Assembly (NCBI GenBank): GCA_965208835.1
Contig: OZ242358.1
Coordinates: 1,984,001-2,048,000 of the forward strand
Direction of reading: 5' to 3'
DNA: 64,000 nt
DNA from: Candidatus Latescibacterota bacterium
Lineage (GTDB): Bacteria > Latescibacterota > UBA2968 > GCA-2709665
Shown here: positions 6,565 through 22,871 of the stretch, piece after piece
Position numbering within the stretch: the stretch's first letter is position 1
Layout of the letters: each line of letters starts with the position of its first letter
Program-made: the position numbers and the translations under genes
The notes under the pieces: generated by a model
What the model saw: the letters and a program-made list of their open reading frames with translations, nothing else
Told to the model about the DNA's origin: nothing
Database searches by the model: none

Positions 6565-7068
6565 ATGTGTGGAACGAATCTGCTGCGTATCGCCGGCATC
6601 GTGCTGGGTGCGGGTCTGATCTGTTGTTTTGCCGACGTCGCGGCAGCCGGAGGCGATAAACCGGGTACCGTGCCGCGTGTGCAGGTTGTCACGCTCGAAG
6701 GTGATACGCTGAATCTTGCCGACGTCTGCGAAGGCAAGCCATCCTTCGTCTATTTGTGGGCAACCTGGTGCAAGTCCTGCAAGAAGGACCTGAAAAACGT
6801 CTTCAAGTTGAGGAAGAAATTCGGCGACAGGGTCCAGGTCTTCGGCATTGCCTGGAAGAACAGCGCGGAGGAAATTCAGACCTTCTTCGCGGACAGGAAG
6901 GAAACGCTGCACAGCTACATTGATTCGGATGGCCGGGTGTTCGAAGCCTTCGAGACGCGTTTGACGCCCACGGTTGTCATTGTCAATGCGCGGGGCGAGG
7001 TCCTTTTTTCCGGTTACCGTTCTTTTAGGACATACAGGAAAATTCTGGAAAAGTCATTGAAGGGTTAG
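6565..7068 (+). CDS. TlpA-family thioredoxin-like thiol-disulfide oxidoreductase, exported
   Basis: WATWCKSC CxxC motif, cis-Pro loop LTPT, N-terminal signal segment. Confidence 0.85.
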   Translation: MCGTNLLRIAGIVLGAGLICCFADVAAAGGDKPGTVPRVQVVTLEGDTLNLADVCEGKPSFVYLWATWCKSCKKDLKNVFKLRKKFGDRVQVFGIAWKNSAEEIQTFFADRKETLHSYIDSDGRVFEAFETRLTPTVVIVNARGEVLFSGYRSFRTYRKILEKSLKG

Positions 7069-7285
7069 CCTCGATTCGCAATTGTTCGGGGACCTGAATG
7101 TCGAATGTATACAGAAGAACAAAGGCGAATTGACGTCAGGGGTCCCGGATACTTCAGGTCACTGGACGTGAGGGGAATTTTCATCCATTTGAACGACCTC
7201 AATACCCCGTTTTCACACGGCACCTTCTGTGCCTTTTGCGCTTTTTGTGGTAAATTGACTGTTGTCTTTTTTCGAACTGAGGTTA
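7066..7285. mobile_element. MITE-like element family A, copy 1
   Basis: Ends TAGCCTCGATTCG...CGAACTGAGGTTA form an imperfect TIR. Similar to 12656-12852, 22468-22687 and 46832-47090. Starts at the TAG of the TlpA gene. Confidence 0.7.
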
Positions 7286-7318
7286 GCTGCAAATAACGTC
7301 GCTGGAGGATCCACGACC

Positions 7319-8293
7319 ATGAGACGCGCGTTACCGGTTTTCCCGCTGATTCTGTTCGCCCAACTGATTCTCACGGACCAGCTCGTACTGGCGCAGCCGG
7401 GCGTGAGTTGACGCCGCCCCGTGCTCCCGGGCGGGAGAATGCTGCAGGGCAGTCTGATTTCGAAGGACCTTCTGGTTCTGAGCATGAATTACGAATACGA
7501 GTATCTGGGCGATGCGAAGTTCGGTACCGGACCGATACCCAACATCAACCAGGAAGTGACCAGTATGTCAACGGTATCCGTATTCGCAAGTTACGGGGTT
7601 ACGGAATGGTTCGGCGCCGCCGTGGTGCTTCCGTTTCGTTCCATAACCAACGATAAAATTCTCCTTCCAGGTCAGTACGACAACCAGTATCTGGGCGGCG
7701 AGTACGTCCGGCACGCCGCCGGTCTCGGCGACGTCGTTCTGATGTTGAACTTTGCGCCGCCTCTGCCGGAAGCGTTGCCCGGGCTTCTTTTTTCGGCAGG
7801 CGTCAAGCTCGCGAACGGGTCGACCCACGCGGTCGATGAGTACGGCGAGCGGTTCGCCGATCTGCTGCAGGTGGGTTCCGGCAGCATGGACCCCATTCTC
7901 TCTGTAAGTCTTTCACGCTCGTTCGACAATCTGTTCTTCTCCGGTATGCTATTCACCCGCATTATTTCCCGCGAGAATGTATACGGATACAAATATGGAA
8001 ACGAGTTTCAAGGCATCTTTTCCATGGATTATCACCACGGGGACAAGCTCATTGCGGGTCTCGGCCTGAACCACGTTCACACGGCCCGCGATTTTTTCCA
8101 ATATGGAAAGATCGCCCGAAAACGTGGGGGCACCTGGGTTTATCTTGCGCCGAAGCTGGGCGTACGGGCGATGGAGAATCTGAGCCTGGAAGCGAGATTG
8201 CCACTTCCTGTTTACCAGAATGTGAATGAGAGCCAGCTGACTTCCAATTATCAGCTCCACGTTGGCGCCACGTATCACTTTTTCGCCCGGTAG
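7319..8293 (+). CDS. outer-membrane beta-barrel transporter (phenol-degradation MetA-like family), candidate selenoprotein with in-frame TGA at 7409-7411
   Basis: GGAGG RBS and ATG 7319 give signal peptide MRRALPVFPLILFAQLILTDQLVLA-QPGVS*RRPVLPGG, in frame with ORF 7421-8293. Barrel motifs GLGD, QVGSGS.D, GGTWVYLAP, LPVYQNVN and an aromatic C-terminus. Confidence 0.75.
7412..7450 (+). promoter_or_regulatory. putative bacterial SECIS hairpin
   Basis: CTCCC-GGGC-GGGAG stem-loop (7424-7437). The G-rich apical loop begins 18 nt after the TGA. Outer GCCC/GGGC pairing is possible. Confidence 0.55.
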
Positions 8294-8343
8294 CAGCGGG
8301 AACGGCTGCACCGCGTGATATCGTCAAATTGCGGGAGGCCGAG

Positions 8344-9075
8344 TTGCCGCTGAATGAAACCGAGAAGATGTGGGCCGAGCTGGCGCCGTTTTACGACGTC
8401 ATGTATCAGTGGAAGGACTATCGGGCCGAGTCGGAGCGGGTTCATCAGTTGATCCGTTCACATTGTGTGTCGCACGGTAACACACTGCTGGACGTCGCGT
8501 GCGGGACCGGGGGGCATACCCGATATCTGCGGGACCACTACGATATCACCGGCATGGATCTGAATCGGGAAATGTTGAAGGTAGCCCGCAGAAAAATACC
8601 CGGTGTCACATTTCTGTCCCGGGACATGACGTCCTTCAATCTCAAGCGTCGCTTTGACGCGGTCATCTGTCTGTTCAGTTCAATCGCCTACGTCAGGACG
8701 TACCGGAACCTGAAACGGACGATCGCCTGTTTTGCAAGACATCTGAAACCCGGCGGCACTCTGATTATCGAGCCCTTTTTCACGAAAGAGACGTTCGTTG
8801 CAGGATCGATTCACGGAGGCACGCTTGAAGCCGACGGCGTAAAAATCTCCAGGCACAACGTGAGTCGCCGCCGCGGAAACCTTGCCGTCCTCGATTTTCA
8901 TATTCTCCTCTCTACGAAAAAAGGCACCCGGTATTTCCGCGACACCCACGAGATGGCCTTGTTCGACAGGGAGAGATTTCTCGAGATTATGGCGCATGCG
9001 GGTCTGCGGCCGAGGTACAAGGAGAGCGGTCTGATGCCGGGCCGCGGACTCTACGTCTCGCTGAAGGCCGTTTGA
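8344..9075 (+). CDS. class I SAM-dependent methyltransferase
   Basis: LLDVACGTG motif I, FDAVICLFSS, HLKPGG. TTG start after GGAGG (alternative ATG 8368). Confidence 0.88.
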   Translation: MPLNETEKMWAELAPFYDVMYQWKDYRAESERVHQLIRSHCVSHGNTLLDVACGTGGHTRYLRDHYDITGMDLNREMLKVARRKIPGVTFLSRDMTSFNLKRRFDAVICLFSSIAYVRTYRNLKRTIACFARHLKPGGTLIIEPFFTKETFVAGSIHGGTLEADGVKISRHNVSRRRGNLAVLDFHILLSTKKGTRYFRDTHEMALFDRERFLEIMAHAGLRPRYKESGLMPGRGLYVSLKAV

Positions 9076-9338
9076 ACCTCCGGTTCAGGCGCTGATTGCC
9101 CGGAATCGCCTATCGATGTCGATCCATATCCCAACTCGATGATCCTGTATTGACCCGCGGATCCGCCCCGTCCCCATTCGCCCCCGTACCGTTTCCTCCT
9201 TTGAGATCCCGCGTCTTTTCCGTATTATCTGGCGAAATCCCATCCATAATGAATGCGAATCACAGGAACGCCTGCCAGTCGGAGCGCCGCCCCGGGTGAA
9301 GGGGACATTTCCGTGTGCCAAATCAGGAGTGAAACGTA

Positions 9339-10703
9339 ATGGAGCCACATTCGGACAACGGCAATGCAGGGACCGACCGGAATCCGCAGGTTCTGGGCAA
9401 GAATTTCATGTTTCCGCCTCATGTGATCGACGATATACACATAAAGGCGAATCTGGGTCGGTACCGCATGCGCGGCATGGCGCTTTTCAAGGAGATCCCG
9501 TCGTGGGACGACCTGACGTTTCTGCCAGGCACGCTCACCCGGTTCGTCATCGAGGGGTACCGCGAGAAATGCGAAACCAGGACGGTGCTTGGGCCGATGG
9601 CCGAACGGCCGCTGGTGCTGGATATTCCCATTTACGTCACGGGGATGAGTTTCGGCGCGCTGTCTTACGAAGCGAAGGTGGCGCTGGCGAGAGGTGCCAC
9701 AATGGCGGGCACGGCAACCTGTTCCGGAGAAGGCGGAATGCTGCCCGACGAGCGTCGGTATTCGGAGAAGTGGCTGTACCAGTGCATTCAGTCCCGCTAC
9801 GGGTTCAATCCGCACCACATGCGTCTTGCCGACGGCGTGGAGTTTTTCATCGGCCAGGGGTGCAAGGTGGGCCTCGGCGGGCACCTGATGGGCCAGAAGG
9901 TGACGGACCAGGTGGCTGAAATGCGCTCGTTGCCGGCGGGGATCGACCAGCGCTCGCCGGCCAGGCACCCGGATTGGCTGGGTCCCGACGATCTGGCCCT
10001 GAAGATCGAGGAGATTCGGGAAGCCACCAACTGGCAGATACCCATCCAGCTGAAGCTCGGCGCGGCGCGGGTCTACGACGATGTGAGGATGGCCGCCAAG
10101 ACCGGCCCCGACAGCATCTACATGGACGGGATGGAGGGTTCGACGGGGGCGGGCCCCCACCTGGCTACCGAGGAGACGGGCGTGCCGGGTATCGCGGCCA
10201 TCAGGCAGGCCAGAAAGGCGCTGGACGACGTCGGAAAGACCGGGGAGATTACGCTCGTCTATGCGGGAGGCATTCGCAACGGAGCCGACGTGGCCAAGGC
10301 GCTCGCTCTTGGAGCCGACGCGGTAGCCATCGGCACCGCGGCGATGGTGGCGCTGAATTGCAACAAGGATATTCCGGAGGCGGACTACGAGGGAACGGTG
10401 GGCGTTCCTGCGGGATCCTGCTATCATTGCCATACCGGGCTGTGTCCGGTGGGCGTGGCCACCCAGGATCCGGTACTTCGCAGCCGCCTGGACCCGGACG
10501 AGGCGGCAGAACGGGTGTATAATTTCCTGCATACCCTCGCCATCGAATGCCAGATGTTCGCCAGGGCCTGCGGCAAGACCGACGTCCATTCCCTGGAGCC
10601 GGAGGACCTTGCCGCTCTCACGATGGAAGCATCCGCCATGGCGGAGGTGCCGCTTGCCGGCACCCGCTATACGGTGGGGCATCCCGAGATGAACAGGTAT
10701 TGA
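9339..10703 (+). CDS. mgsC: FMN-binding glutamate synthase family protein, N-methylglutamate synthase subunit C (MgsC/GlxD)
   Basis: GMSFGALS, GQGCKVGLGGHL, SPARHPDW, CYHCHTGLCPVGVATQD Fe-S motif. Located in a methylamine cluster with gmaS. Confidence 0.85.
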   Translation: MEPHSDNGNAGTDRNPQVLGKNFMFPPHVIDDIHIKANLGRYRMRGMALFKEIPSWDDLTFLPGTLTRFVIEGYREKCETRTVLGPMAERPLVLDIPIYVTGMSFGALSYEAKVALARGATMAGTATCSGEGGMLPDERRYSEKWLYQCIQSRYGFNPHHMRLADGVEFFIGQGCKVGLGGHLMGQKVTDQVAEMRSLPAGIDQRSPARHPDWLGPDDLALKIEEIREATNWQIPIQLKLGAARVYDDVRMAAKTGPDSIYMDGMEGSTGAGPHLATEETGVPGIAAIRQARKALDDVGKTGEITLVYAGGIRNGADVAKALALGADAVAIGTAAMVALNCNKDIPEADYEGTVGVPAGSCYHCHTGLCPVGVATQDPVLRSRLDPDEAAERVYNFLHTLAIECQMFARACGKTDVHSLEPEDLAALTMEASAMAEVPLAGTRYTVGHPEMNRY

Positions 10704-10804
10704 ACGGCGGGAAGACGCAAGTAGGAAGGAAGAAGGAAGAGGACCGCAACGCACACCACCGGTCTTGCGCTCCACTTTCCGGGACACTGAATCAGGAGAA
10801 TCCG

Positions 10805-11221
10805 ATGGACGAAGCCAGAGACGTGAACTACTACCTGAAGTCCACGGGGCTTGACTCGGACCGCGAGAAGGAAATCGGACAGCACATCGGATACCGGTAC
10901 GACGTGAACCTGCCGCCGGACTATGCGCTCCTGACGCCGTTCCTGAAGGGGTACATCGAGGCGATGGGTTGGCGGGACCTGAACTGGCTGGAAGATGTAC
11001 ATATGGGATACGAAGACGGGAAGCCGGCGGTTTTCGACCGGAATATCAACGGCTGGGTGCTGGTGCCCGAAAATATCGCGCTGCCCGACAACCAGCAGGA
11101 ACGGGACATGATTGCGCGGGAACTGCTCGTCAAGTTCCAGATGTCCGAAGAGCATCCCGTCATGGAGCTTGGCGACGCATACGGAATAAAGCTTGAAGGC
11201 GACGGCGGCGCCCACGGGTAG
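10805..11221 (+). CDS. hypothetical protein (138 aa, acidic)
   Basis: AGGAG RBS, ATG 10805, coding-like codon usage, positioned between mgsC and the ACAD-fold gene. Confidence 0.75.
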   Translation: MDEARDVNYYLKSTGLDSDREKEIGQHIGYRYDVNLPPDYALLTPFLKGYIEAMGWRDLNWLEDVHMGYEDGKPAVFDRNINGWVLVPENIALPDNQQERDMIARELLVKFQMSEEHPVMELGDAYGIKLEGDGGAHG

Positions 11222-11263
11222 GGCGCGGTCGTGTGCGGCATCCTGAAGAAACCGGGAGGCGTT

Positions 11264-12658
11264 ATGAGCAAGTCGAAGATGTGGGGCCCGGATGCGTTCT
11301 GGGGTCTGGACTACGACTGGGACCCTCAGTGGGTATTGACGCACGAACAGAAGGCGCTCCAGGAAAGACTGATCGACCTGTGCCGGACGACGCTGCGGGA
11401 TAACGCGGTTGAAAGCGATCGCGAACTCGTGTTTCCGCGGAAGAACTTCGAGGCGCTGGCTTCGCTGGGCCTCCTGGGATTGAACGTGCCCCGGGATTGG
11501 GGAGGCCTGGGAGAAGACCATACGTGTACTGCGATGGTGGTGGAAACGATCGCGCGTTACGGCTGCGCGAGTACTGCAATGTGTTATACCATGCACGTCG
11601 GTGCCGTCGCCGCCGCCATGTTCCGGGCGCACGGCAATCCGACGCTTCAGGACCTCATGAAACGCCTCGACAGAGACGTGCTGGTGGGTACCCTGTCCTA
11701 TTCGGACCCCGAGACGGGATCCCACTTCTGGTATCCGATATCGTCGGGAGCGGAGCGGGTGGATGGCGGCTGGAAGGTGCGCAAGAAGGCATCGTGGACG
11801 ACGTCCGCGGGTTTTGCCGACTGGTACATCGTGCAGACGACGAGTCCGGATTTCGCCGGCGATTATTCGAATCTGTCGTGTTTTCTCGTCATGGCCGACG
11901 AGGTGAAAGCGGAGCCGTCCCTGTGGGACGGCTTGGGTCTGCGCGGGAATCAGTCCGGCACGCTGGAGGTCGATAACGTCACGATGCCGGAGAGCAGGCT
12001 GGTGGGCCCGGTGGGCGACGGGGCGAATTCCAACGACGAGACTGTGGATCCGTTCTTCCTGTTGTGCTCGTCGGCCTGCTGGAACGGAATCTCACTTGGA
12101 ATGATCGATATCGCCAGGCGGCACACCACCGCCAGGAGGCACGCGGACGTGGGCATGCGGGTGGCGGACTATCCCACGATCCAGGATTACGTGGGCGAGG
12201 CCGTGATCGATACAAACACCTCGCGGTCCTTTGTCTACCTGATGGCCCGGGCGATGGACGACGTCACGAATCAGTGCGACTGGTCGATCCACGAGGACCT
12301 CTCCTGCATGCCGAGGGCTGAGGTGCTGCACTGGATGTGGCAGGTGAAGTTCACCGCGGCGAAGAACGTGGCGAACGTCTCCGACAAGATGCTGCACGCC
12401 TGCGGGGGGACGGGGTACAAGCCCGACCTGGGTATCGAACGGTATCTGCGTGACGGAAAGGCTGGATGGGTGATGGGCCCCACGAATGAGGTCCTGCGCC
12501 AGTTTGTGGGCAAGAGCGTGTTGCTGGGGTTCGATTCACTGGACTATTGGAACCAGTCGGTCAACGAACGGATATTGAGGAACGAACTCAAGAAAATGGA
12601 TGGCGATAGCAAGAAGGAACTCGCGCATCAGCTTCTGGCTGAAACCGACGAGGGGTAA
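11264..12658 (+). CDS. acyl-CoA dehydrogenase-fold flavoprotein, possible two-component monooxygenase
   Basis: GLLGLNVP..WGGLG, SDPETGSH, W.GLGLRGNQS, IERYLRD motifs. GGAGG RBS. Confidence 0.85.
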   Translation: MSKSKMWGPDAFWGLDYDWDPQWVLTHEQKALQERLIDLCRTTLRDNAVESDRELVFPRKNFEALASLGLLGLNVPRDWGGLGEDHTCTAMVVETIARYGCASTAMCYTMHVGAVAAAMFRAHGNPTLQDLMKRLDRDVLVGTLSYSDPETGSHFWYPISSGAERVDGGWKVRKKASWTTSAGFADWYIVQTTSPDFAGDYSNLSCFLVMADEVKAEPSLWDGLGLRGNQSGTLEVDNVTMPESRLVGPVGDGANSNDETVDPFFLLCSSACWNGISLGMIDIARRHTTARRHADVGMRVADYPTIQDYVGEAVIDTNTSRSFVYLMARAMDDVTNQCDWSIHEDLSCMPRAEVLHWMWQVKFTAAKNVANVSDKMLHACGGTGYKPDLGIERYLRDGKAGWVMGPTNEVLRQFVGKSVLLGFDSLDYWNQSVNERILRNELKKMDGDSKKELAHQLLAETDEG

Positions 12659-12852
12659 CCTTGATTCGTAATTCTTCGTGGACGTTAAATCGTATATGTG
12701 CAAGCTGATAAAGGCGATTTGAAGGCGGATTACCAGGATACACCAGGCCAATGGACGTGCAGGGAAAAAACGTCCTTCTATACGTCGATAACACCCTGTT
12801 TCGGAGGGTTTTATCGCGTCGCCACGTTGCTGTTTTTTCGAATTGAGGGTGA
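12656..12852. mobile_element. MITE-like element family A, copy 2
   Basis: TAACCTTGATTCG...TTCGAATTGAGGGTGA. Shares GATAAAGGCGATT and GCGGATTACCAGGATACACC with 22468-22687. Starts at the ACAD stop codon. Confidence 0.75.
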
Positions 12853-15185
12853 TGCCTGAAGACGTCCAAATGACCGGGACGGGACTGCTTAGATGGACGC
12901 CGGGCAGGGAGCGCTATCGGGTGCCGGGCGGTGGGGCGATCGCCCTGGGGCTGGCACAGGGCGACCGGCTGGCGGTCGTCGACGTGGAAGGGCGCCAGCG
13001 CTGCGAACTGGGCGTATTCGGTCCGGACGGCGGCGCCGATCCCTCCCGGCTGGGTCTCCGTGCTGACAGTGCGATGGAGGGTTTCACGGAGGCGCTCCGG
13101 CGCGGGGACGAGAGCGCGCTGGCGGCCCGCGCGGCCCTGCGGCGAAGGGGCATCGACCTCGCGGGCGCCCGGGCGGTACAGGTCTTCGGGGGAGAGACGG
13201 AAGCCGGCGCCGAAACGTGTTTCAACGCCCGGAGAGACGCCGTTTGCGTGATTGCGGCTCCCGGCGGGCCGATGCGGGTGGATGCCCAGGATCCCCCGAC
13301 GGACCTGGAAGTCGTGGTCAGACGCTCGCGCGTGGAAACGCCGGAAAGCCCCCCGCTGCCCGCGCCATTGGGTGACATGCGCCTGGATCTGGAGGTGGAA
13401 AGGGCGTCGGCCATTGCCTACGAGGTAAAGGCCGGAGAGTTCATCCAGGTGATCGACGTCGCCGGGCGCCAGTGTTCCGATTTTCTGGCGTTCGACGCCC
13501 GGCAGCTGCAGCATGGCGTTGAGCGTGGCCTGGATGGGACCACCACGCGGACCCTCATGGGCGCGGCCTATCCCGGTCCGGGCCTCTTTTCGAAGTTTTA
13601 CGACCAGGATATGCAGCCGCTGGTCGAGGTCGTCCGGGATACGGTAGGGCGCCACGATACGTTTGCGCTTGCGTGCACCGCCAAATATTACGAGGATATG
13701 GGTTATCCGGGTCACGTCAACTGTACGGACAACTTCAACGCGGCATTGGACCCGTATACGATTCAGCCCCGGCGCGGCTGGCCAGCCGTCAATTTCTTTT
13801 ACAATACGAGAATCGACGGGAATAACGTCCTGTTTATGGACGAGCCATGGTCTCGTCCGGGCGACCATGTCCTGCTGAAGGCCTTAACGGACCTGGTCTG
13901 TCTGTCGTCCGCGTGTCCGGACGATATCGATCCGGCCAACGGCTGGGAACCAACGGAGATTCAGGTCCGCGTCTACCCTGAACGGTACCGGTTTTCCAGG
14001 GGGATTGCTCACCGGATGACGGCAGACGCCGAGCCCAGGTTGACGAGGGAGACGGCCTTTCATCAGCGCACGTCCTCCCTGACTCGCCATTACGAGGAAT
14101 ACCGCGGGTTCTGGCTTCCCGCGTGTTTTACAGGCAAGGGCGCCGTCGAGGAATATTTCGCCTGCCGCGAGACCGCGGCGGTGATGGACCTGTCCGCGCT
14201 GCGTAAATTCGAGGTCCTCGGGCCGGACGCGGAGGCGTTGCTGCAGTACACGCTGACGCGGGACGTCCGCCGGCTTACTCCGGGGCAGGTGACTTATTCC
14301 GCGATGTGTTACGAAACCGGCGGCATGCTGGACGACGGCACGTTGTTCCGGTTGGGCGCCGAGAATTTCCGGTGGATCTGCGGCGACGATTACGGGGGCA
14401 CGTGGCTGCGCGAGCAGGCGAGTCGGCTCGGGATGCGGGTATGGGTCAGAAACTCGACCGATCAACTCCATAATCTTGCCGTTCAGGGACCCGGAAGCCG
14501 GGATATCCTTCGCAACGTCATCTGGACGCCTCCGTCTCGCCCGTCCCTGGCCGAACTGGGCTGGTTCCGATTCACGGTGGGCCGAATCGGCAATGGAAAC
14601 GGTCCGGCGATTGTCGTATCCAGGACGGGCTATACGGGCGAACTGGGCTACGAGGTATGGTGCCATCCCAACGATGCGCCCGCGGTGCGGGATGCCATCT
14701 GGGAAGCGGGACAGCGGGATGGCCTGAAACCGTTGGGGCTGGAAGCCCTGGACATGCTGCGGATCGAGGCCGGTCTGGCTTTTGCGGGATGCGAGTTTGA
14801 CGACCGGACGGACCCGTTTGAGGCGGGGATCGGCTTCACGGTTCCGCTCAGGCGCAAGAAAGACGACTTTATCGGCAAAGAGGCGCTGATCCGAAGGCGT
14901 TCGCATCCACAACGCGTGCTGGTCGGGCTGGAGGTATCCGGGAATGAACCGGTCGCCACCGGCGACGACGTTTACGACGGGCGCGGCCGCGTTGGCGTGA
15001 TCACGAGCGGCACCCGCTCGCCGATTCTGGGCAGGAATATCGCGCTTTGCCGTATCGCTACCCGGTACGCCGCGGTCGGCGCCGAAGTCGAGGTGGGTAG
15101 GCTGGACGGCCACCAGAAACGTATTGCCGCGCGGGTGGTGCGGTTTCCGTTTTACGATCCGGACAAAACGCGGCTACGTTCCTGA
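12852..15185 (+). CDS. tdm: trimethylamine N-oxide demethylase (DUF1989 + GcvT aminomethyltransferase domains)
   Basis: DUF1989 region with HDTFALAC-x12-H-xx-C and a third Cys 64 residues later (SAC), the spacing I recall for Tdm metal ligands. GcvT domain DLSALRKFEVLGPDA, SRTGYTGELGYE, PFYDP.K. Confidence 0.85.
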   Translation: MPEDVQMTGTGLLRWTPGRERYRVPGGGAIALGLAQGDRLAVVDVEGRQRCELGVFGPDGGADPSRLGLRADSAMEGFTEALRRGDESALAARAALRRRGIDLAGARAVQVFGGETEAGAETCFNARRDAVCVIAAPGGPMRVDAQDPPTDLEVVVRRSRVETPESPPLPAPLGDMRLDLEVERASAIAYEVKAGEFIQVIDVAGRQCSDFLAFDARQLQHGVERGLDGTTTRTLMGAAYPGPGLFSKFYDQDMQPLVEVVRDTVGRHDTFALACTAKYYEDMGYPGHVNCTDNFNAALDPYTIQPRRGWPAVNFFYNTRIDGNNVLFMDEPWSRPGDHVLLKALTDLVCLSSACPDDIDPANGWEPTEIQVRVYPERYRFSRGIAHRMTADAEPRLTRETAFHQRTSSLTRHYEEYRGFWLPACFTGKGAVEEYFACRETAAVMDLSALRKFEVLGPDAEALLQYTLTRDVRRLTPGQVTYSAMCYETGGMLDDGTLFRLGAENFRWICGDDYGGTWLREQASRLGMRVWVRNSTDQLHNLAVQGPGSRDILRNVIWTPPSRPSLAELGWFRFTVGRIGNGNGPAIVVSRTGYTGELGYEVWCHPNDAPAVRDAIWEAGQRDGLKPLGLEALDMLRIEAGLAFAGCEFDDRTDPFEAGIGFTVPLRRKKDDFIGKEALIRRRSHPQRVLVGLEVSGNEPVATGDDVYDGRGRVGVITSGTRSPILGRNIALCRIATRYAAVGAEVEVGRLDGHQKRIAARVVRFPFYDPDKTRLRS

Positions 15186-15288
15186 TTACAGCTTCCAGGA
15201 TCCGCAATGCTTCTCCCGCCGACGTCGTACCCACGATAGTGCCCTGAAGCTTCGCGTTGGACGGCGCTCTCATTGAGAGGGTATCGGA

Positions 15289-15780
15289 ATGGCCTTCGAC
15301 CCGATGGAGCAACGTCGGATTATGGGTTGTTTTGCAACCGGCGTCACCGTTGTCACCACGGTTGCAGGCGGCGAATACAGGGGAATGACAGCCAATGCCG
15401 TGACCTCGCTTTCGCTTGATCCCCCTCTGGTCATGGTATCCGTTGACAAGGGGGCGCAGATGCACGCCCATTTGACGGAAAGCCGGTATTTCGCATTGAA
15501 TATCCTCAGCGAGGATCAGGAAGCGGTTTCAACGCAGTTTGCCAGACCGGGTCCCAAGGACTTCTCGAACGTGGCCACGACGACGGTCCGGACCGGTGCC
15601 CCCGTCCTCACGGACGCACTGGGCCACGTGGAATGTCTGCTGGCCGACGTGTTGCAGGCCGGCGACCACGATATTTTCGTTGGCAAAATTGTTGCGGGCG
15701 ATGCGGGTTCAGGTCGTCCGCTTCTGTTTTACCAGGGAGAGTATCGCCGGATTTCGGACGGAACCGCTTCTCAGATCTGA
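15289..15780 (+). CDS. flavin reductase (DIM6/NTAB family)
   Basis: FATGVTVVT, GMTANAVTSLSLDPPLV, AGDHDIFVG, PLLFYQGEY. Confidence 0.92.
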   Translation: MAFDPMEQRRIMGCFATGVTVVTTVAGGEYRGMTANAVTSLSLDPPLVMVSVDKGAQMHAHLTESRYFALNILSEDQEAVSTQFARPGPKDFSNVATTTVRTGAPVLTDALGHVECLLADVLQAGDHDIFVGKIVAGDAGSGRPLLFYQGEYRRISDGTASQI

Positions 15781-15833
15781 CGGACACCTGTCGCGGAGTC
15801 GCGCATTCTTCAGGTTCAATACGGAGGGATTAA

Positions 15834-17228
15834 ATGGACAACGAACTCAGTGCATTGACCGTGGTGTTTACGGAATTCTATTACTGGATTTGTATCGTGC
15901 TCATGTTCCTCATCCACGTCGGCTTCTGTCTGTACGAAGTCGGCGTGTCCAGGAGGAAGAATATGATGCACACCCTTATGAAGAACGCGATGCTGATTCC
16001 TCTGGTCACCATTACGTTCTATTTTTTCGGGTGGTGGATCTATTTCGCCGTGCAGAACGGCCCCGGGATTACGGGCGGGCTGATCGAAGCCGCGTGGGCT
16101 ACGCCCTGGAATGAGCTGATGGGTACGCATATGGGTGGCAAGCCGCACGGCGGCGGGCTGACAGGAGACGATACGGCGCTATGGGCGCGGCTGAACGGCG
16201 TGTTCTGGGCGGCGTTTCTGCTGTTCTCATGGACGGCGGGATCGATTCTCTCGGGTGCGGTCATCGAACGCATCCGATCCGGCGCGTTCTGGATTTTCGC
16301 GGTGCTGGTGGGATCGGTTACCTGGGTGATCGACGCGGCGTGGGGCTGGTCCGCCGACGGCTGGATGGTTCAGGTACTGGGATACCACGACGCATACGCC
16401 TCCGGTGTGATCCACGCGATCAGCGGCGGGTCCGCGCTGGCGATCCTCTACCACCTGGGGCCGCGAATCGGCAGATTCAGGTCCGACGGTTCTCCCAGAA
16501 ACTTCCCGCCTCAAAACACCTGGCTGGTCGTTATCGGTCTGTTCCTGATCTATACGGGGTTCTGGGGCTTTTACGCGGCCTGCAACGTGCCCATCATGGA
16601 CGTGGACCCCGCCAGCGACCGGGCGTTCTTTTCTGCCACCACGATTTACCTGACGCCCACGACGCTCAGCGCCATCACGTTCAACTTTCTGATGTCGCTC
16701 GCCGGCGGATTGATCATGGGGTATTTCGTTTCCAAGGGCGACCCTTACTGGACCTTCTCCGGTGGACTGGCCGGCATCATCACGGCATCGGCCGGCAATG
16801 ATCTGTACCATCCGATGCAGGCGCTGCTCATCGGCGCATTCGGCACGTTCTGCATGTACAAGTTGCACAACTGGGTCGAGAAACGGTTCAGGATCGACGA
16901 TGCGGTGGGCGCCGTGGCGGTACATGGCTATGCCGGGGTTATCGGGGTGATTGTCGCGGGCTTCGTACTCTGGGGATATCCGGGCGCCAATCCCGCGTAC
17001 GCTCCGATTACGCCGTGGGGACAGACGCTCGGCGCCGTCATCATGTTCTTTGTGCTGGGCTTTCTGCCCTGCTACGTCCTGGGGGCGATCCTCAAGAAAC
17101 TCGGCATTCTGCGCATTCCGGCGCGGATTGAAATTGCGGGTCTGGATCATGTGGCCATTCAGAACGAAAATGCGGATGCGGACGAACTCGCTCAGGCCGA
17201 AATCGACGAAGCGCGGGCAGGCAGCTAG
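15834..17228 (+). CDS. amt: ammonium/methylamine transporter (Amt family, divergent)
   Basis: About 11 TM segments, SGAVIER, LGPRIGRF, IDDAVGAVAVHG, twin His retained. Confidence 0.88.
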   Translation: MDNELSALTVVFTEFYYWICIVLMFLIHVGFCLYEVGVSRRKNMMHTLMKNAMLIPLVTITFYFFGWWIYFAVQNGPGITGGLIEAAWATPWNELMGTHMGGKPHGGGLTGDDTALWARLNGVFWAAFLLFSWTAGSILSGAVIERIRSGAFWIFAVLVGSVTWVIDAAWGWSADGWMVQVLGYHDAYASGVIHAISGGSALAILYHLGPRIGRFRSDGSPRNFPPQNTWLVVIGLFLIYTGFWGFYAACNVPIMDVDPASDRAFFSATTIYLTPTTLSAITFNFLMSLAGGLIMGYFVSKGDPYWTFSGGLAGIITASAGNDLYHPMQALLIGAFGTFCMYKLHNWVEKRFRIDDAVGAVAVHGYAGVIGVIVAGFVLWGYPGANPAYAPITPWGQTLGAVIMFFVLGFLPCYVLGAILKKLGILRIPARIEIAGLDHVAIQNENADADELAQAEIDEARAGS

Positions 17229-17460
17229 TGTTCTGTCCCGGAAATAAGTTGCCAAAACTCGACCGTCGAGTCGCCTGGCTCGCAAGGCGCCCGAGCGCAG
17301 CCGACCTGCGTAAGGTCGGCGAGCGAGGTGAACATAGCGAGACGGGATGAATCGGCTGTCGAATGGTGAGGAATTTTTGGGACAGGACACAAGTGTTTTG
17401 TTCCGGAAGCAGGTCGCCTGAATCGGCGGTCGTTTGATCGGATGTTTTCGGGACAGGACA
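17229..17460. mobile_element. two tandem MITE-like elements, family D (17229-17389 and 17394-17460)
   Basis: Ends TGTTCTGTCCC...GGGACAGGACA and TGTTTTGTTCC...GGGACAGGACA, flanked by CTAG, CAAG and TTGA. Internal hairpin GCCGACCT-GCGTA-AGGTCGGC. Confidence 0.65.
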
Positions 17461-17476
17461 TTGATAGAAAGGATCT

Positions 17477-19162
17477 ATGCGCGAGCACGACGGTTTGCCG
17501 GACATCGAGATTGCGAGGCGGGCACGCCTGCACCATATCGGCCAGGTCGCGCAGGAATTGGGCGTGCCGGAAGACCAGCTGGAGGTCTACGGCAGGTACA
17601 AGGCCAAGGTCTCGATGGATTTTTACGACAGCCTTGCCGGAAATGCCGCCGGCAAGCTGGTATTGGTCTCGGCGATCAATCCCACGCCTTCCGGCGAGGG
17701 CAAGACAACCACGACCGTGGGCCTGGGCGACGCCCTTAACCGGCTGGGAAAGCGCACGGCAATCTGTCTCAGAGAGCCTTCATTGGGCCCCTGTTTCGGG
17801 ATGAAGGGTGGCGCTGCCGGCGGCGGGATGTCCCAGGTAGCGCCGATGGAGGACATCAACCTGCATTTTACGGGCGATATCCACGCAATTGGCGTCGCCC
17901 ACAACCTGCTCTCGGCAGCGATCGACAACCACGTCCATCACCGGAACAGGCTGGATATCGATCCCCGGCGCGTCCTGTGGAAGCGCGTGATGGACATGAA
18001 CGACCGCGCGCTTCGGGAAATCGTCGTCGGTCTGGGAGGTACGGGGAACTCCTATCCACGTGAATCGGGATTTGAAATCACGGTCGCATCGGAAGTGATG
18101 GCTGTTTTTTGCCTTTCGGAGTCGCTCGACGAGCTTCGGGAGCGGCTGGGCCGGATCATTGTGGCGTATACGCGGTCCAATGAACCGGTTACGGCGGCGG
18201 ACCTCAATGTGCACGGTGCGATGGCCGTGCTGCTGAGAGACGCGCTGATGCCGAACCTGGTGCAGACCCTGGAGAACAACCCGGCAATCGTTCACGGGGG
18301 TCCGTTCGCCAATATCGCGCACGGTTGCAATTCGGTGATCGCGACCAAGCTGGCCATGCGACTGTCCGAATACACCGTAACCGAAGCCGGATTCGGTGCG
18401 GATCTGGGCGCGGAGAAATTTCTGAATATCAAGTGCCGTCAGGCCGGCATCCGCCCGGACGTGGTGGTGCTGGTGGCGACGGTCCGGGGGCTGAAATACC
18501 ATGGCGGGATGTCACCCAGGCGGCTGTCGGACGCCAACCCGGCCGCGCTGAAAAAGGGTCTCGTGAATCTGAGGAAGCATATCGAAAACATCCGGCGTTT
18601 CGGCCTCACAGCTGTCGTGGCCGTGAACCGGTTTCTTTCCGACACGTCCGGTGAGATCGCTCTGATTCAGGACAGCTGCGCCGATATGGATCTGCCGATC
18701 GTTCCATCGGATCACTGGGCGAAGGGGGGGAGCGGCGCGGAGGCGCTTGCGCGAAGGGTTGTCGAGGCCGCGGAAACGGCTTCCTGCAGTTTCAAGTTTC
18801 TCTATCCCGATAATCTGCGGTTGTGGGACAAGGCCAGGATCGTCGCCCGGGAAGTCTACGGCGCCGACGATATTATGGGGGACAAACGGTTGAGAGCCCG
18901 GTTCGCAAAGCTCGAGGAAGCGGGGCACGGAAAGCTTCCGGTCTGTATGGCCAAGACCCAGTATTCGCTCTCGACGGATCCGGGATTGAAGGGCAGACCG
19001 AGGGGTTTCGACGTGCCCATCCGCGACGTGAGGGTGTCCGCCGGGGCAGGTTTTGTGGTCGTGTATACCGGAGACGTCATGACAATGCCGGGGCTTCCGC
19101 GCAGGCCGTCTGCCGAGGCGATCGATTATGATGAAGCCGGACACACGGTCGGTCTGTTCTGA
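17477..19162 (+). CDS. fhs: formate--tetrahydrofolate ligase
   Basis: [65 protein letters not shown]. Confidence 0.97.
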
Positions 19163-19196
19163 AAGCGGAACCTGTATCGATGTCAGCCACGGACAT

Positions 19197-19403
19197 TTCG
19201 TCTCTTCGTCTTCTCGCTTTGCGAAACTACGAATGTACGAAACTACGAAAAAGCTGGTACATCACTCGTCTTTTCATAGTCTCGTATTCTCGTTTCTTCG
19301 CGTTATTCGTTGTCTGGTTTTCGGTTCTTGGTTTTTTGTCGTTTCGTAGTCTCGTAGTCTCGTAGTCTCGTATTCTCGCTTCTTCGCGTATTTCGTCGTT
19401 TCT
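19197..19403. repeat. 8-bp-phased tandem-repeat hairpin element, copy 1
   Basis: (ACGAAACT)-like arm, core AAGCTGGTACATCACTCGTCTT, (CTCGTAGT)-like arm. Inverted homolog at 47744-47944. Confidence 0.75.
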
Positions 19404-19440
19404 GGCGTAATTTTCCGGGCAACTTCAAAGGAGGAGGCAG

Positions 19441-19671
19441 ATGAGAACGGGTTTGATCGAAACGTGGGCGGGGAATCCGGCCGACGTGGGTCCGATGTAT
19501 CCCTTTGTCGGGTCCGAGGTTCCTCTATTTGTGGTTTGCATTGTTTTATGGATTGCGTACACGATCTGGCAGATCAAACACGAGAATGCAACTTATGCTG
19601 CCGAGCTGGATCAGTTGGCCGAGGCAGAATCGCCCGCATCGGCGACGGATACTGAGAACAGGAATTCCTAA
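19441..19671 (+). CDS. small single-pass membrane protein of methylamine/Amt clusters
   Basis: GGAGGAGG RBS. W......DVGPMYPF.GSE motif followed by one TM helix. Confidence 0.75.
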   Translation: MRTGLIETWAGNPADVGPMYPFVGSEVPLFVVCIVLWIAYTIWQIKHENATYAAELDQLAEAESPASATDTENRNS

Positions 19672-19697
19672 CATGGATTTAGTGGGGAGAACTGACG

Positions 19698-21032
19698 ATG
19701 ACGCTGGACCAGGTTAAAGAATTCGTAGCCGCGAATGGAATCGACTTCTTTCTGTGTTCGTTTGTGGAGATGAGCGGGATGCCGAAGGCCAAGGTGGTGC
19801 CCGTCACCCACCTCGACGACATGGCCTCGGAAGGCGCGGGGTTCGCAGGTTTCGCGGCGGGCAATATGGGGCAGGGCCCGCACGATTCCGATATGATGAA
19901 CATACCGGACTTCAACTCGATGACCGTATTGCCTTGGCGCAAGAATACGGCGTGGGTTGCGGGCAACATCCAGGTCGAGGGGGAGCCGTTCGGATATTGT
20001 CCGCGGACGATCCTGCAGCGGCAGCTCGCAAGGGCGGAAGCGAAGGGATATCGCTTGAATCTGGGCGTGGAAGCGGAATTCATCCTCCTTAAAAAGGATG
20101 ATCAGGGGAACTATGCGCTGGCCGATCCGATGGATACCCTGGAGAAGCCCTGTTACGATCTCGTCACCCTGCATCGCAACCTGGACGTGATGACCACGCT
20201 CATCGGGTATATGCAGGAACTGGGATGGGAACCCTATGCAAACGACCACGAAGACGCCAATTGCCAGTTCGAGATCAACTGGACCTATTCCGACGCGCTG
20301 ACGACCGCCGACCGGCAGACGTTCTTCAGATGGATGGTGAAGGTGAACGCGGAGCGGCTCGGATACCACGCGACGTTCATGCCGAAGCCGTTTTCTCACC
20401 TCACAGGAAGCGGCGCGCACTATCACATGAGCCTGTGGGATCCGGAGAACAGGGCCAACCTGTTTCTCGACGACGGGGATGAAAACGGTCTGTCGAAGGA
20501 GGCTTACTGGTTCATGGCGGGCATCCTCAACCACGCGAAGGCGATTTCCGCAGTGTCCGCGCCCCTGGTGAACAGCTACAAACGCCTCACGAGGGGGGCT
20601 CCCCGATCGGGCGCGTCCTGGGCGCCGATCTGTATCACCTACGGCGGATCGAACCGGACGCAGATGATCCGAATCCCCGACGCGGGCCGTATCGAAAACC
20701 GGGCGATCGATGGCGCCGCAAATCCATACCTGACGACTGCGGCAATGCTGGCGGCCGGGCTCGACGGCATCGAAAACCGTATGGAGCCGGGCGAACGCAA
20801 TGAGGGCAATCTCTATGAGGTGCCCGAAAGCGAATTGAGCGCGCGGGGCATCGACCTGCTCCCGGGTACCCTGGCCGAGGCGGCCGATCACCTGGCGTCC
20901 GATGACGTGCTCCGGGAGGCGCTCGGAACGGAATATGCGGACTATTACGTGCAGGTGAAACGCGAAGAATGGGCGGAGTACCATCTGCACGTGGACCAGT
21001 GGGAACGCGAACGGTATCTGCCGGTATATTAG
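19698..21032 (+). CDS. gmaS: type III glutamine synthetase family, gamma-glutamylmethylamide synthetase (GmaS/GlnT)
   Basis: KAKVVP, GAGFAGFA, DHEDANCQFE, TFMPKPF, NSYKRL...SGASWAP, NRTQMIRIP. Methylamine-cluster context. Confidence 0.85.
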   Translation: MTLDQVKEFVAANGIDFFLCSFVEMSGMPKAKVVPVTHLDDMASEGAGFAGFAAGNMGQGPHDSDMMNIPDFNSMTVLPWRKNTAWVAGNIQVEGEPFGYCPRTILQRQLARAEAKGYRLNLGVEAEFILLKKDDQGNYALADPMDTLEKPCYDLVTLHRNLDVMTTLIGYMQELGWEPYANDHEDANCQFEINWTYSDALTTADRQTFFRWMVKVNAERLGYHATFMPKPFSHLTGSGAHYHMSLWDPENRANLFLDDGDENGLSKEAYWFMAGILNHAKAISAVSAPLVNSYKRLTRGAPRSGASWAPICITYGGSNRTQMIRIPDAGRIENRAIDGAANPYLTTAAMLAAGLDGIENRMEPGERNEGNLYEVPESELSARGIDLLPGTLAEAADHLASDDVLREALGTEYADYYVQVKREEWAEYHLHVDQWERERYLPVY

Positions 21033-21126
21033 GGATTGTCGTCGGGAATCGTCGAAATCCGCACCGCCGCGTGGGCGCCCGCCTGTCGCCAACCGTGTGA
21101 TGTCGAAAACCTGACTGGATGGGTCT

Positions 21127-22470
21127 ATGGAGAACGCAGCCAGACGGCCGGTTCGAGAGGCGCCGCGGGGCGTCGGAGGCTTGCTGCGGAATATCGGACC
21201 GGGCGTGGTCGTGTCGGGTTCGGTGGTCGGGTCCGGCGAGTTGCTGGTGACCACCCGAATGGGGGCGGAGGTGGGCTTCGTCTTCCTCTGGGGGGTGATC
21301 CTGGCATGTCTGGTCAAATTTTTCATCCAGCTTGAACTCGGGCGCCAGTGTGTCCTGCACAACAGCACGACAATTCAGGTGCTGGACCGCGTGCCCGGCG
21401 TGCGTTGGTCGAATACCTCCTGGGCGGCCTGGCTGTGCGTGCTGGGTTATTTCTCGGTGATGATTGCCGTGATCGGCATACTGGGGTCCGTGGCGGGACT
21501 GATGGTGACCCTTCTTCCCGGTGTCCCGTACAATATCTGGGCCATTCTGGTTTTCGCGGCAATCTCGATTCTGCTGTACCGGGGCCTCTACGCCGACCTG
21601 GAGCGGATGATCACGATCCTGGTCGCGGGCTTCAGCCTGGTTGTCATCGGATCCTTGATTGGGATGCAGGCCACGCCATACGCCGTGGGAGGCGCCGAGG
21701 TGCTGTCGGGATTTCGCTTCACGTTGCCCGCGGACGGGGCGTTCGTCGCCATGGCCGTGATGGGGTCCGTAGGCGCGACGGCGGTGGAGTTGTTCATGTA
21801 TCCCTACTGGGTGCGGGAGAAAGGGTATGCGGATTTTGTGGGGCCGAGGGAGGATACGCCGGAGTGGCGCGCGCGATATCGGGGCTGGATGCGTGTGCTG
21901 AAAACCGATGCGCTGGTGTGCACCGGCATCGCATTGGTGATTACCTGCGCCTACTATCTGCTGGGCGCCTCGATTCTGAAGAAGCTGAACGTGGTCCCGC
22001 AGGGCATGGAGGTCGTGGAACAGGTCTCACTGATCTTTACGCTAAGCATCGGAACCTGGACAAAGAACGTGTTCATGTTCGGCGCGTTCTGCACGCTGTT
22101 TTCCACGCTGCTCGTTTTCACGGCCAGTTCCGGGCGCATCAGCGTGGATTTTCTCAGGCAGACGGGCGTCGCCGGACTCGATAACGAAGCGGTGCGTCTT
22201 CGGCTGCTGCGGTCGCTGCAGATCGCCTTCCCGTTTCTGTGGCTCTGCGTGACCATTGCAACCCCCGATACCCCGCTTGCGCTGGTGCTGATCGGGGCAA
22301 ACGCCAACAACCTGCTGTTGATTCCAATGGCCTACGGCGTGGTCCACCTGGCGATGCGCGCCGCGGACGCGGAACGGATGTCCGTATGGACGGAACTCGC
22401 GTTGCTCTTGACGGTCTGGGCGATCGTCAACTTTACCGCGGTCAATCTGTATTTGAACTGGACGCGTTAA
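21127..22470 (+). CDS. Nramp-like (APC-fold) transporter
   Basis: IGPGVVVSGSVVGSGEL, KFFIQLELGR, YPYWVREKG, about 11 TM segments. Confidence 0.8.
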   Translation: MENAARRPVREAPRGVGGLLRNIGPGVVVSGSVVGSGELLVTTRMGAEVGFVFLWGVILACLVKFFIQLELGRQCVLHNSTTIQVLDRVPGVRWSNTSWAAWLCVLGYFSVMIAVIGILGSVAGLMVTLLPGVPYNIWAILVFAAISILLYRGLYADLERMITILVAGFSLVVIGSLIGMQATPYAVGGAEVLSGFRFTLPADGAFVAMAVMGSVGATAVELFMYPYWVREKGYADFVGPREDTPEWRARYRGWMRVLKTDALVCTGIALVITCAYYLLGASILKKLNVVPQGMEVVEQVSLIFTLSIGTWTKNVFMFGAFCTLFSTLLVFTASSGRISVDFLRQTGVAGLDNEAVRLRLLRSLQIAFPFLWLCVTIATPDTPLALVLIGANANNLLLIPMAYGVVHLAMRAADAERMSVWTELALLLTVWAIVNFTAVNLYLNWTR

Positions 22471-22687
22471 CCATGATTTGCCAACTTTCGCGGACGTTAA
22501 TTCGTACACATGCAAGTTGATAAAGGCGATTAAACTGCGGATTACCAGGATACACCTGGTTACTGGACGTTAACGAAAATATCATCCTTATGTACGACCT
22601 CGATACCCCGTTTGGCACCGGTCCCTTCTGTGTCTCGTGTGCTCTTTGTGTGCAATTTGACTGTTGTCTTTTTTCGAAATGAGGTTA
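22468..22687. mobile_element. MITE-like element family A, copy 3
   Basis: TAACCATGATTTG...CGAAATGAGGTTA. Starts at the TAA of the Nramp-like gene. 3' part TTGACTGTTGTCTTTTTTCGAA is identical to copy 1. Confidence 0.78.
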
Positions 22688-22714
22688 AGTACCCGGACGG
22701 ACGAGTAAGTTCTC

Positions 22715-22745
22715 AGGGCGGCCGGCAACGGCCGCCCTTCTTATT
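22715..22745 (+). terminator. probable intrinsic terminator
   Basis: Perfect 10-bp stem AGGGCGGCCG-GCAA-CGGCCGCCCT followed by TCTTATT, between convergent operons. Confidence 0.65.
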
Positions 22746-22790
22746 GAATTGCCAATTCGCGGTACCGGATCACCCGGCCACGATGACAGT

Positions 22791-22860
22791 GTAGGGGCGT
22801 CCCCTGTGGGCGCCCGCACTCCTCCCCTCTCTGCGCCGGGGAGGGGCCGGGGGAGGGGTC
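22791..22860. repeat. REP-like GTAG palindrome plus CCCCTC/GAGGGG palindromic repeat
   Basis: GTAG-GGGCGTCCC-CTGT-GGGCGCCC followed by CTCCCCTCTC...GGGGAGGGGCCGGGGGAGGGG. Confidence 0.55.
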
Positions 22861-22871
22861 AATCGTCCGAG

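Follow-up and report, generated by a model that had tools for sequence, protein, structure and literature searches.

How does a bacterium that carries the later genes of methylated-amine catabolism oxidize trimethylamine (TMA) when the established oxygenase genes are missing? The question is raised by a gene cluster at positions 9339-21032 of the 64,000-nucleotide stretch of a Candidatus Latescibacterota genome analyzed here (the window). This cluster encodes trimethylamine N-oxide (TMAO) demethylase (Tdm), a GmaS-type glutamine synthetase (GS) and formate-tetrahydrofolate ligase (Fhs), along with a flavoprotein of the acyl-CoA dehydrogenase (ACAD) fold and a flavin reductase. An initial annotation, whose gene coordinates were all correct, recorded neither tmm nor dmm in the window and assigned the last two proteins to a two-component flavin monooxygenase acting in amine N-oxygenation or dimethylamine (DMA) demethylation. 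The observation behind it is confirmed, and its interpretation is partly supported. We propose, with confidence evenly poised for and against, that the ACAD-fold protein and the reductase form a two-component flavin monooxygenase of the group D type that converts TMA to TMAO in place of Tmm.

The absence of the two oxygenases extends to the whole source genome, a single contig of 5.18 Mb with a completeness of 97.8%. Across it, no match was found to NF058570 for Tmm, to PF00743 for genes resembling flavin-containing monooxygenases (FMO), or to PF11927 (HODM/DmmC), the haem alpha subunit of DMA monooxygenase. The PF11927 search is able to find its targets, being positive in 5 of 50 other genomes that carry a relative of the ACAD-fold gene (ACAD-positive genomes). 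As for a gene like trimethylamine dehydrogenase (TMADH), the sole PF00724 match in the genome is weak (73.6 bits) and unlike TMADH. The possibility that a GCV_T gene at 1.949 Mb is dmmD was rejected, as this gene is YgfZ/GcvT-like and has folK and panBC as neighbors.

The ACAD-fold protein displays the three domains of its fold (PF02771, PF02770 and PF00441, with Foldseek matches to ACADs as well), but has lost the catalytic base. In the HMMER alignment to the solved ACAD 8i4p, kagwvmgptnev of the query stands against kitqiyegtnqi, placing MGPT where YEGT is found and Gly where the catalytic Glu of the medium-chain acyl-CoA dehydrogenase type is located. The initial annotation had pointed to this WVMGPTNE motif, and residues G401, W402, V403, M404, G405, P406, N408 and E409 are invariant among 23 family members. 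Glu is also absent where vdpff of the query aligns with ldhtr of the solved ACAD; this stretch presumably corresponds to the alternative Glu position on helix G of the isovaleryl-CoA and long-chain acyl-CoA dehydrogenase (IVD/LCAD) type. Bit scores and cut-offs for the window proteins come from Pfam and NCBIfam profile searches. No NCBIfam equivalog cut-off is reached by the ACAD-fold protein, the best model being NF049984 (Rv1679/FadE16 family) with 218 bits against 600, and models of the ACAD-fold monooxygenase group score 47-70 bits, all under cut-off. The models nearest to the flavin reductase are the HPA hydroxylase reductase (135 bits) and HsaB (132 bits), again under their cut-offs; both are partners of ACAD-fold oxygenases.

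Distribution of the family offers a further level of detail. Genomes of 185,579 species yielded 363 related stretches, and the best 80 loci were compared with the window proteins; 50 of these have at least 5 kb on either side and are called well-flanked. Family members, 72-97% identical, occur in Latescibacterota, Gemmatimonadota, Acidobacteriota, many Alphaproteobacteria (including Xanthobacter flavus, Dongia deserti, Virgifigura deserti and Zavarzinia) and Udaeobacter, hence in at least five phyla. The linkage to tdm is pronounced and crosses phyla: Tdm is encoded within 10 kb of the ACAD-fold gene in 43/50 well-flanked loci, and at 29/50 the distance is under 1 kb. A reductase homolog is found in 31 of these loci, in 25 of them within 3.5 kb. 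Greedy clustering of open reading frames (ORFs) over the 80 loci suffered from antisense ORFs, a consequence of the high GC content, and recovered the ACAD-fold protein in only 57/80; it guided the choice of neighbors for annotation and contributed no counts.

An even sample of 401 alphaproteobacterial genomes contains Tdm in 33 and the ACAD-fold protein in 10. The latter is present in 9/33 Tdm-positive and 1/368 Tdm-negative genomes (Fisher 5e-10, kinship ignored); related genomes are not independent, and such values therefore overstate the case. The sole ACAD-positive genome without Tdm harbors a divergent copy with 61% identity. A divergent sister form of 61-62% identity is located at G098:C1:2654838-2656223 and G038:C17:24936-26318, in one case without Tdm and in the other as a second copy. 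Two copies of 77% identity (loci L033 and L049), with no Tdm within 10 kb, are found in an alphaproteobacterial metagenome-assembled genome (MAG).

An indication of the step in question comes from the profile of the 33 Tdm-positive Alphaproteobacteria. Tmm scores over its cut-off in 0/9 ACAD-positive and 15/24 ACAD-negative genomes (p = 0.0014), while strong Dmm matches occur in 2/9 and 6/24, respectively (p = 1). The anti-correlation that the initial annotation expected with the replaced enzyme thus holds for Tmm and fails for Dmm, which favors TMA to TMAO over the DMA step. Of the two reactions it offered, N-oxygenation of TMA becomes the best reading and DMA demethylation is left unsupported by the profile; what it called an undescribed step is rather a known step, for which we hypothesize a non-homologous enzyme. 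In the 50 ACAD-positive genomes drawn from the best 80 loci, chiefly for their long contigs, Tmm is present in 3, PF11927 in 5 and both in none. X. flavus has a single locus ordered ACAD, reductase, Tdm, amino-acid permease, DmmA, DmmB, DmmC and a genome devoid of Tmm, leaving TMA to TMAO as the only step without an assigned enzyme. DmmC lies in the ACAD/Tdm locus, again with Tmm absent, in two Xanthobacter genomes and one Rhizobiales MAG; a full DmmABC locus was annotated for X. flavus only.

Several observations weigh against a role as Tmm substitute. Tmm is encoded close to the ACAD-fold gene in 3/50 ACAD-positive genomes: Virgifigura deserti has the order Tdm-Tmm-ACAD-reductase over ~7 kb, and in the two others Tmm adjoins the ACAD-fold gene (G045) or lies ~11 kb from it (G036). 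Their presence in one cluster could mean redundancy or different jobs. Neither Tmm nor the ACAD-fold protein is found in 9/33 Tdm-positive genomes, so that the enzyme of the first step is not obligatory and the logic of filling a gap becomes weaker. The split between Tmm and the ACAD-fold protein may also follow lineage or habitat. The search for a reductase homolog was negative at 19/50 well-flanked loci. In sequence comparisons, true ACADs (E ~5e-30) come closer to the protein than do the solved ACAD-fold N-oxygenase DnmZ (3.7e-14) or DszC (2e-10). Its AF2 model is moderate (pLDDT 69.8), with low confidence at residues 400-407, which hold the replaced motif, and Foldseek against the PDB ranks ACADs and DszC/TdsC/XiaF equally, leaving dehydrogenase and monooxygenase unseparated.

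Virgifigura deserti carries, in addition, a second Tmm copy (L098, G003:C23, 198-1475) directly following the gene for a Rieske oxygenase with distant similarity to GbcA, the glycine betaine monooxygenase (172 bits, cut-off 670).

An alternative is an enzyme of broader range. It might oxygenate the nitrogen of both TMA and DMA, iterating with Tdm, or have further tertiary amines or sulfides as substrates, with Tdm-like enzymes processing the resulting oxides. Flavin hydroperoxide enzymes such as Tmm take several soft nucleophiles, and both the tight coupling of the ACAD-fold gene to Tdm and the 42/50 ACAD-positive genomes without Tmm and without Dmm agree with such a range. We nevertheless consider it unlikely, as a second Mgs-like gene set, already a candidate for the DMA step (see below), is nearly always present (its 138-aa protein in 46/50), and action of Tdm on a hydroxylamine would have to be assumed.

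We give still less credence to N- or C-hydroxylation of DMA by the ACAD-fold protein and reductase as a replacement for the haem enzyme DmmABC. Absence of PF11927 from 45/50 ACAD-positive genomes, and from the source genome too, is what such a role would predict, and the three genomes with Tmm and the ACAD-fold gene in one cluster fit consecutive rather than redundant functions. The missing anti-correlation with Dmm argues against it, as does DmmC within the ACAD/Tdm locus of the Tmm-free Xanthobacter genomes and Rhizobiales MAG; moreover, the module complementary to Dmm is a different one, composed of GS2, the second Mgs set and the 138-aa protein. That the protein is an ordinary acyl-CoA or acyl-acyl carrier protein dehydrogenase or oxidase, placed near tdm by chance, is highly improbable: its top PDB and NCBIfam matches are ACADs and the source records annotate the family as acyl-CoA dehydrogenase, but the lost Glu has an invariant replacement, no equivalog cut-off is reached, linkage to tdm holds across five phyla, co-occurrence with it stands at 9/33 versus 1/368, and the operon is free of CoA ligase and fatty-acid genes in Pfam and NCBIfam searches.

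For the proposed TMA oxygenase, the following course can be envisaged. The reductase would use NAD(P)H to reduce free FMN or FAD, and the ACAD-fold protein would bind the reduced flavin, which would react with O2 to form a C4a-hydroperoxyflavin. Attack by the amine lone pair on this intermediate would release TMAO, to be converted by Tdm, the product of the neighboring gene, into DMA and formaldehyde or methylene-tetrahydrofolate. C1 units would be passed on via Fhs, and methylamine via GmaS together with the products of the mgs/mgd genes described below for the 3.18-Mb region. We infer the flavin type and each of these chemical steps, as well as the substrates, which are read purely from gene distribution.

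The first two genes of the cluster follow a different pattern. The initial annotation regarded the first as mgsC and the second, encoding the 138-aa protein (unk138), as a possible third component of the oxygenase; neither assignment held. The MgsC-like protein (MgsC2) shares 58% identity with the canonical MgsC encoded at 3.187 Mb, and 84-98% with unk138-linked copies of other phyla. In a tree, these unk138-linked copies form their own clade (support 100/100), apart from the MgsC of mgsABC operons. DmmC was also considered for this PF01645 gene and rejected, the Dmm subunits being represented in Pfam by PF11927, PF22289/PF22290 and Fer2 proteins. Of 29 loci with both genes, 27 have unk138 adjoining MgsC2. 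It is present in 46/50 ACAD-positive genomes, and three of the four lacking it are the two Xanthobacter and the Rhizobiales MAG with Dmm. It also occurs in 20/29 other Tdm-positive genomes, mostly with Tmm and without the ACAD-fold gene. Its pairing with MgsC2 and its presence in genomes with Tmm and no ACAD-fold gene place unk138 outside the ACAD enzyme.

The protein itself offers few clues. Searches of Pfam, NCBIfam and the atlas gave no match for unk138, and no remote relatives appeared among 267 representatives; at least 8000 candidates match at E <= 0.001, and among the best 120 the only name is 'hypothetical protein'. Its AF2 model has a pLDDT of 60 and no Foldseek match at E <= 0.001, and the predicted complex with MgsC2 scored 0.00, which is evidence neither way. 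In one database protein (P0312), the C-terminal half of unk138 is fused to a C-terminal portion of MgsC2; this fusion is probably a frameshift or assembly artefact and not natural.

The remaining partners are located outside the window. A minus-strand run at 3176000-3195000 of the genome (locus L011, G000:C1) carries canonical mgsA, mgsB and mgsC with soxB/D/A/G-like mgd genes, followed by a diverged GS (GS2; TIGR03105 301 bits, below the cut-off of 470) and second copies of mgsA and mgsB (mgsA2, mgsB2). From these gene positions, the canonical and the second Mgs-like sets are each split between 3.18 Mb and the window, and the second set is complete, with MgsC2 and unk138 in the window and GS2, MgsA2 and MgsB2 at 3.18 Mb. 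Adjoining the run is the gene for a radical SAM/SPASM protein that ends in a SEC-C motif.

Inheritance of the second set is complementary to that of Dmm. GS2 is found in exactly the 23/33 Tdm-positive Alphaproteobacteria that have unk138. The latter is present in 1/8 genomes with strong Dmm matches versus 22/25 without, and exactly one of Dmm or the second set is present in 29/33. This complementarity makes the second set a candidate for the unknown DMA step. A 1.3-Mb genome of SAR11 size illustrates the arrangement (L127, G436:C2:485000-504999): its cluster starts with Tdm, followed by a 116-aa ORF and then a DAO-like gene, and continues with GS2, MgsA2, MgsB2, MgsC2, unk138 and Amt, then MgsA, MgsB, MgsC and GmaS. 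This order agrees with the HTCC1062 locus tags in Smith 2013 (PMC3870248), where the HTCC1062 counterpart of the DAO-like gene is described as strongly induced under nitrogen limitation. The source genome has an ortholog of the DAO-like gene (60-76% identical) at 2645150-2646487, beside a thiamine pyrophosphate enzyme and a homocysteine-methyltransferase-like gene.

We tentatively suggest, as a possibility we hold with some doubt, that the window holds parts of two non-homologous replacements: the ACAD-fold protein and reductase for Tmm, and the second set with a SAR11_1304-type DAO-like oxidase as the long-missing DMA route of bacteria that lack DmmABC, among them those with SAR11-type genomes. 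If analogous to the reactions of GmaS and N-methylglutamate synthase, such a route could possibly proceed via gamma-glutamyl-dimethylamide and/or N,N-dimethylglutamate, and unk138 would then be a new subunit specific to the second set. MgsC2 and unk138 point to a separate candidate pathway for DMA, which may be of more importance than the ACAD finding.

Throughout the cluster, every gene is on the plus strand and intergenic gaps are short. The longest, 535 bp at 19163-19697, lies 5' of gmaS; an Rfam scan of 7000-24000, this gap included, returned nothing at E <= 0.1. The start codon of Tdm is uncertain, as the ORF begins with TTG and the NF053776 match starts only at residue 19. The Amt transporter is 58% identical to the amt product of the SAR11-size cluster (tblastn). 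In the comparison of loci, conservation of the flanking methyltransferase and Nramp-like transporter is restricted to the closest relatives, so both are probably outside the pathway.

Table 1. Genes in and around the window cluster, and two genes of the SAR11-size cluster L127 (numbered within that locus)
Feature	Position	Strand	Profile match or remark
Class I S-adenosylmethionine methyltransferase	8329-9075		Upstream of cluster
MgsC2, PF01645 FMN-domain glutamate-synthase-like protein, 454 aa	9339-10703	+	PF01645, 303 bits
unk138, orphan 138-aa ORF	10805-11221	+	AGGAGA site upstream; Pfam/NCBIfam none
ACAD-fold flavoprotein, candidate TMA oxygenase component	11264-12658	+	PF02771, PF02770, PF00441
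Tdm, TMAO demethylase	12843-15185	+	NF053776, 1235 bits (cut-off 1100); DUF1989, GCV_T, GCV_T_C
NAD(P)H:flavin reductase, candidate reductase component	15289-15780	+	PF01613, 153 bits
Amt-family transporter	15834-17228	+	PF00909, 193 bits
Fhs, formate-tetrahydrofolate ligase	17477-19162	+	PF01268, about 867 bits; NF010030, 866 bits (cut-off 652)
GmaS-type type III glutamine synthetase, canonical set	19698-21032	+	TIGR03105, 593 bits (cut-off 470)
Nramp-like transporter	21127-22470		Downstream of cluster
116-aa ORF after Tdm, SAR11-size genome	L127 3013-3363		No NCBIfam match
DAO-like gene, 'monomeric sarcosine oxidase' type	L127 3463-4788

Within the phylum of the window, Tdm is found in 17/168 genomes, nearly all of one family (15/21). 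The cluster proteins are 72-90% identical to counterparts in Acidobacteriota and Alphaproteobacteria, and this identity, set against the narrow occurrence of Tdm in its own phylum, suggests horizontal movement of the cluster between phyla.

TMA, TMAO and DMA rank among the major currencies of nitrogen and C1 units and serve as aerosol precursors, and surveys of TMA oxidation count tmm. If the proposed replacement is true, TMA oxidizers of soil and freshwater have been overlooked, among them Acidobacteriota, Latescibacterota, Gemmatimonadota, Dongiaceae, Xanthobacter and Udaeobacter. Smith 2013 (PMC3870248) and Lidbury 2017 (PMC5520151) regard the DMA step in Pelagibacter as unknown and speak of a 'metabolic bottleneck'. 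The second set with unk138, perfectly co-inherited and complementary to Dmm, offers a concrete gene set for this question. In the literature collection searched, from which subscription papers are absent, we found nothing relevant on an ACAD-type or two-component TMA monooxygenase, the function of Rv1679/FadE16, Xanthobacter and TMA, glutamyl-dimethylamide or dimethylglutamate, or SAR11_1305-1309, and no assignment of the second set.

Known systems resemble the ACAD-fold enzyme in part. With Tmm, a class B FMO, it shares the proposed reaction, a gene position next to tdm and, in the sampled Tdm-positive Alphaproteobacteria, a mutually exclusive distribution. The two are not homologous: Tmm is a single-component FAD/NADPH enzyme of the Rossmann type, in contrast to an ACAD fold with a separate PF01613 reductase. 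The enzyme would thus work like Tmm without being a Tmm, a reading for which we see the chances as level. The ACAD-fold monooxygenases of group D (DszC/TdsC, HsaA, HPA hydroxylase C2, nitrososynthases such as DnmZ, and XiaF) have in common with it an ACAD fold without the catalytic Glu and a partner reductase belonging to the HpaC/HsaB/StyB type; sequence matches to them are weak, and Foldseek gives a TM of ~0.7. Amine N-oxygenation has a precedent in this group in the nitrososynthase chemistry. The query differs from group D in being closer to true ACADs, and with a small tertiary amine the group would gain a new substrate. True ACADs (Tfu_1647, PDB 7w0j/8i4p; Rv1679/FadE16, NF049984) give the best sequence matches and have the same three domains, but the query departs from them in the Gly at the catalytic position, its score far under the equivalog cut-off and its methylated-amine gene context.

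For the second set, the closest systems are GmaS and MgsABC, since the domains of GS2, MgsA2, MgsB2 and MgsC2 match those of GmaS, MgsA, MgsB and MgsC. The second set differs in consisting of distinct paralogs with an extra orphan subunit gene, unk138, and in occurring, with one exception, only where Dmm is absent. DmmDABC (PF11927, PF22289, PF22290), which from its Pfam names we take to be a haem-dependent oxidative N-demethylase, resembles the second set in the DMA step that the latter may cover; it is absent from the source genome and has no homology to the window genes.

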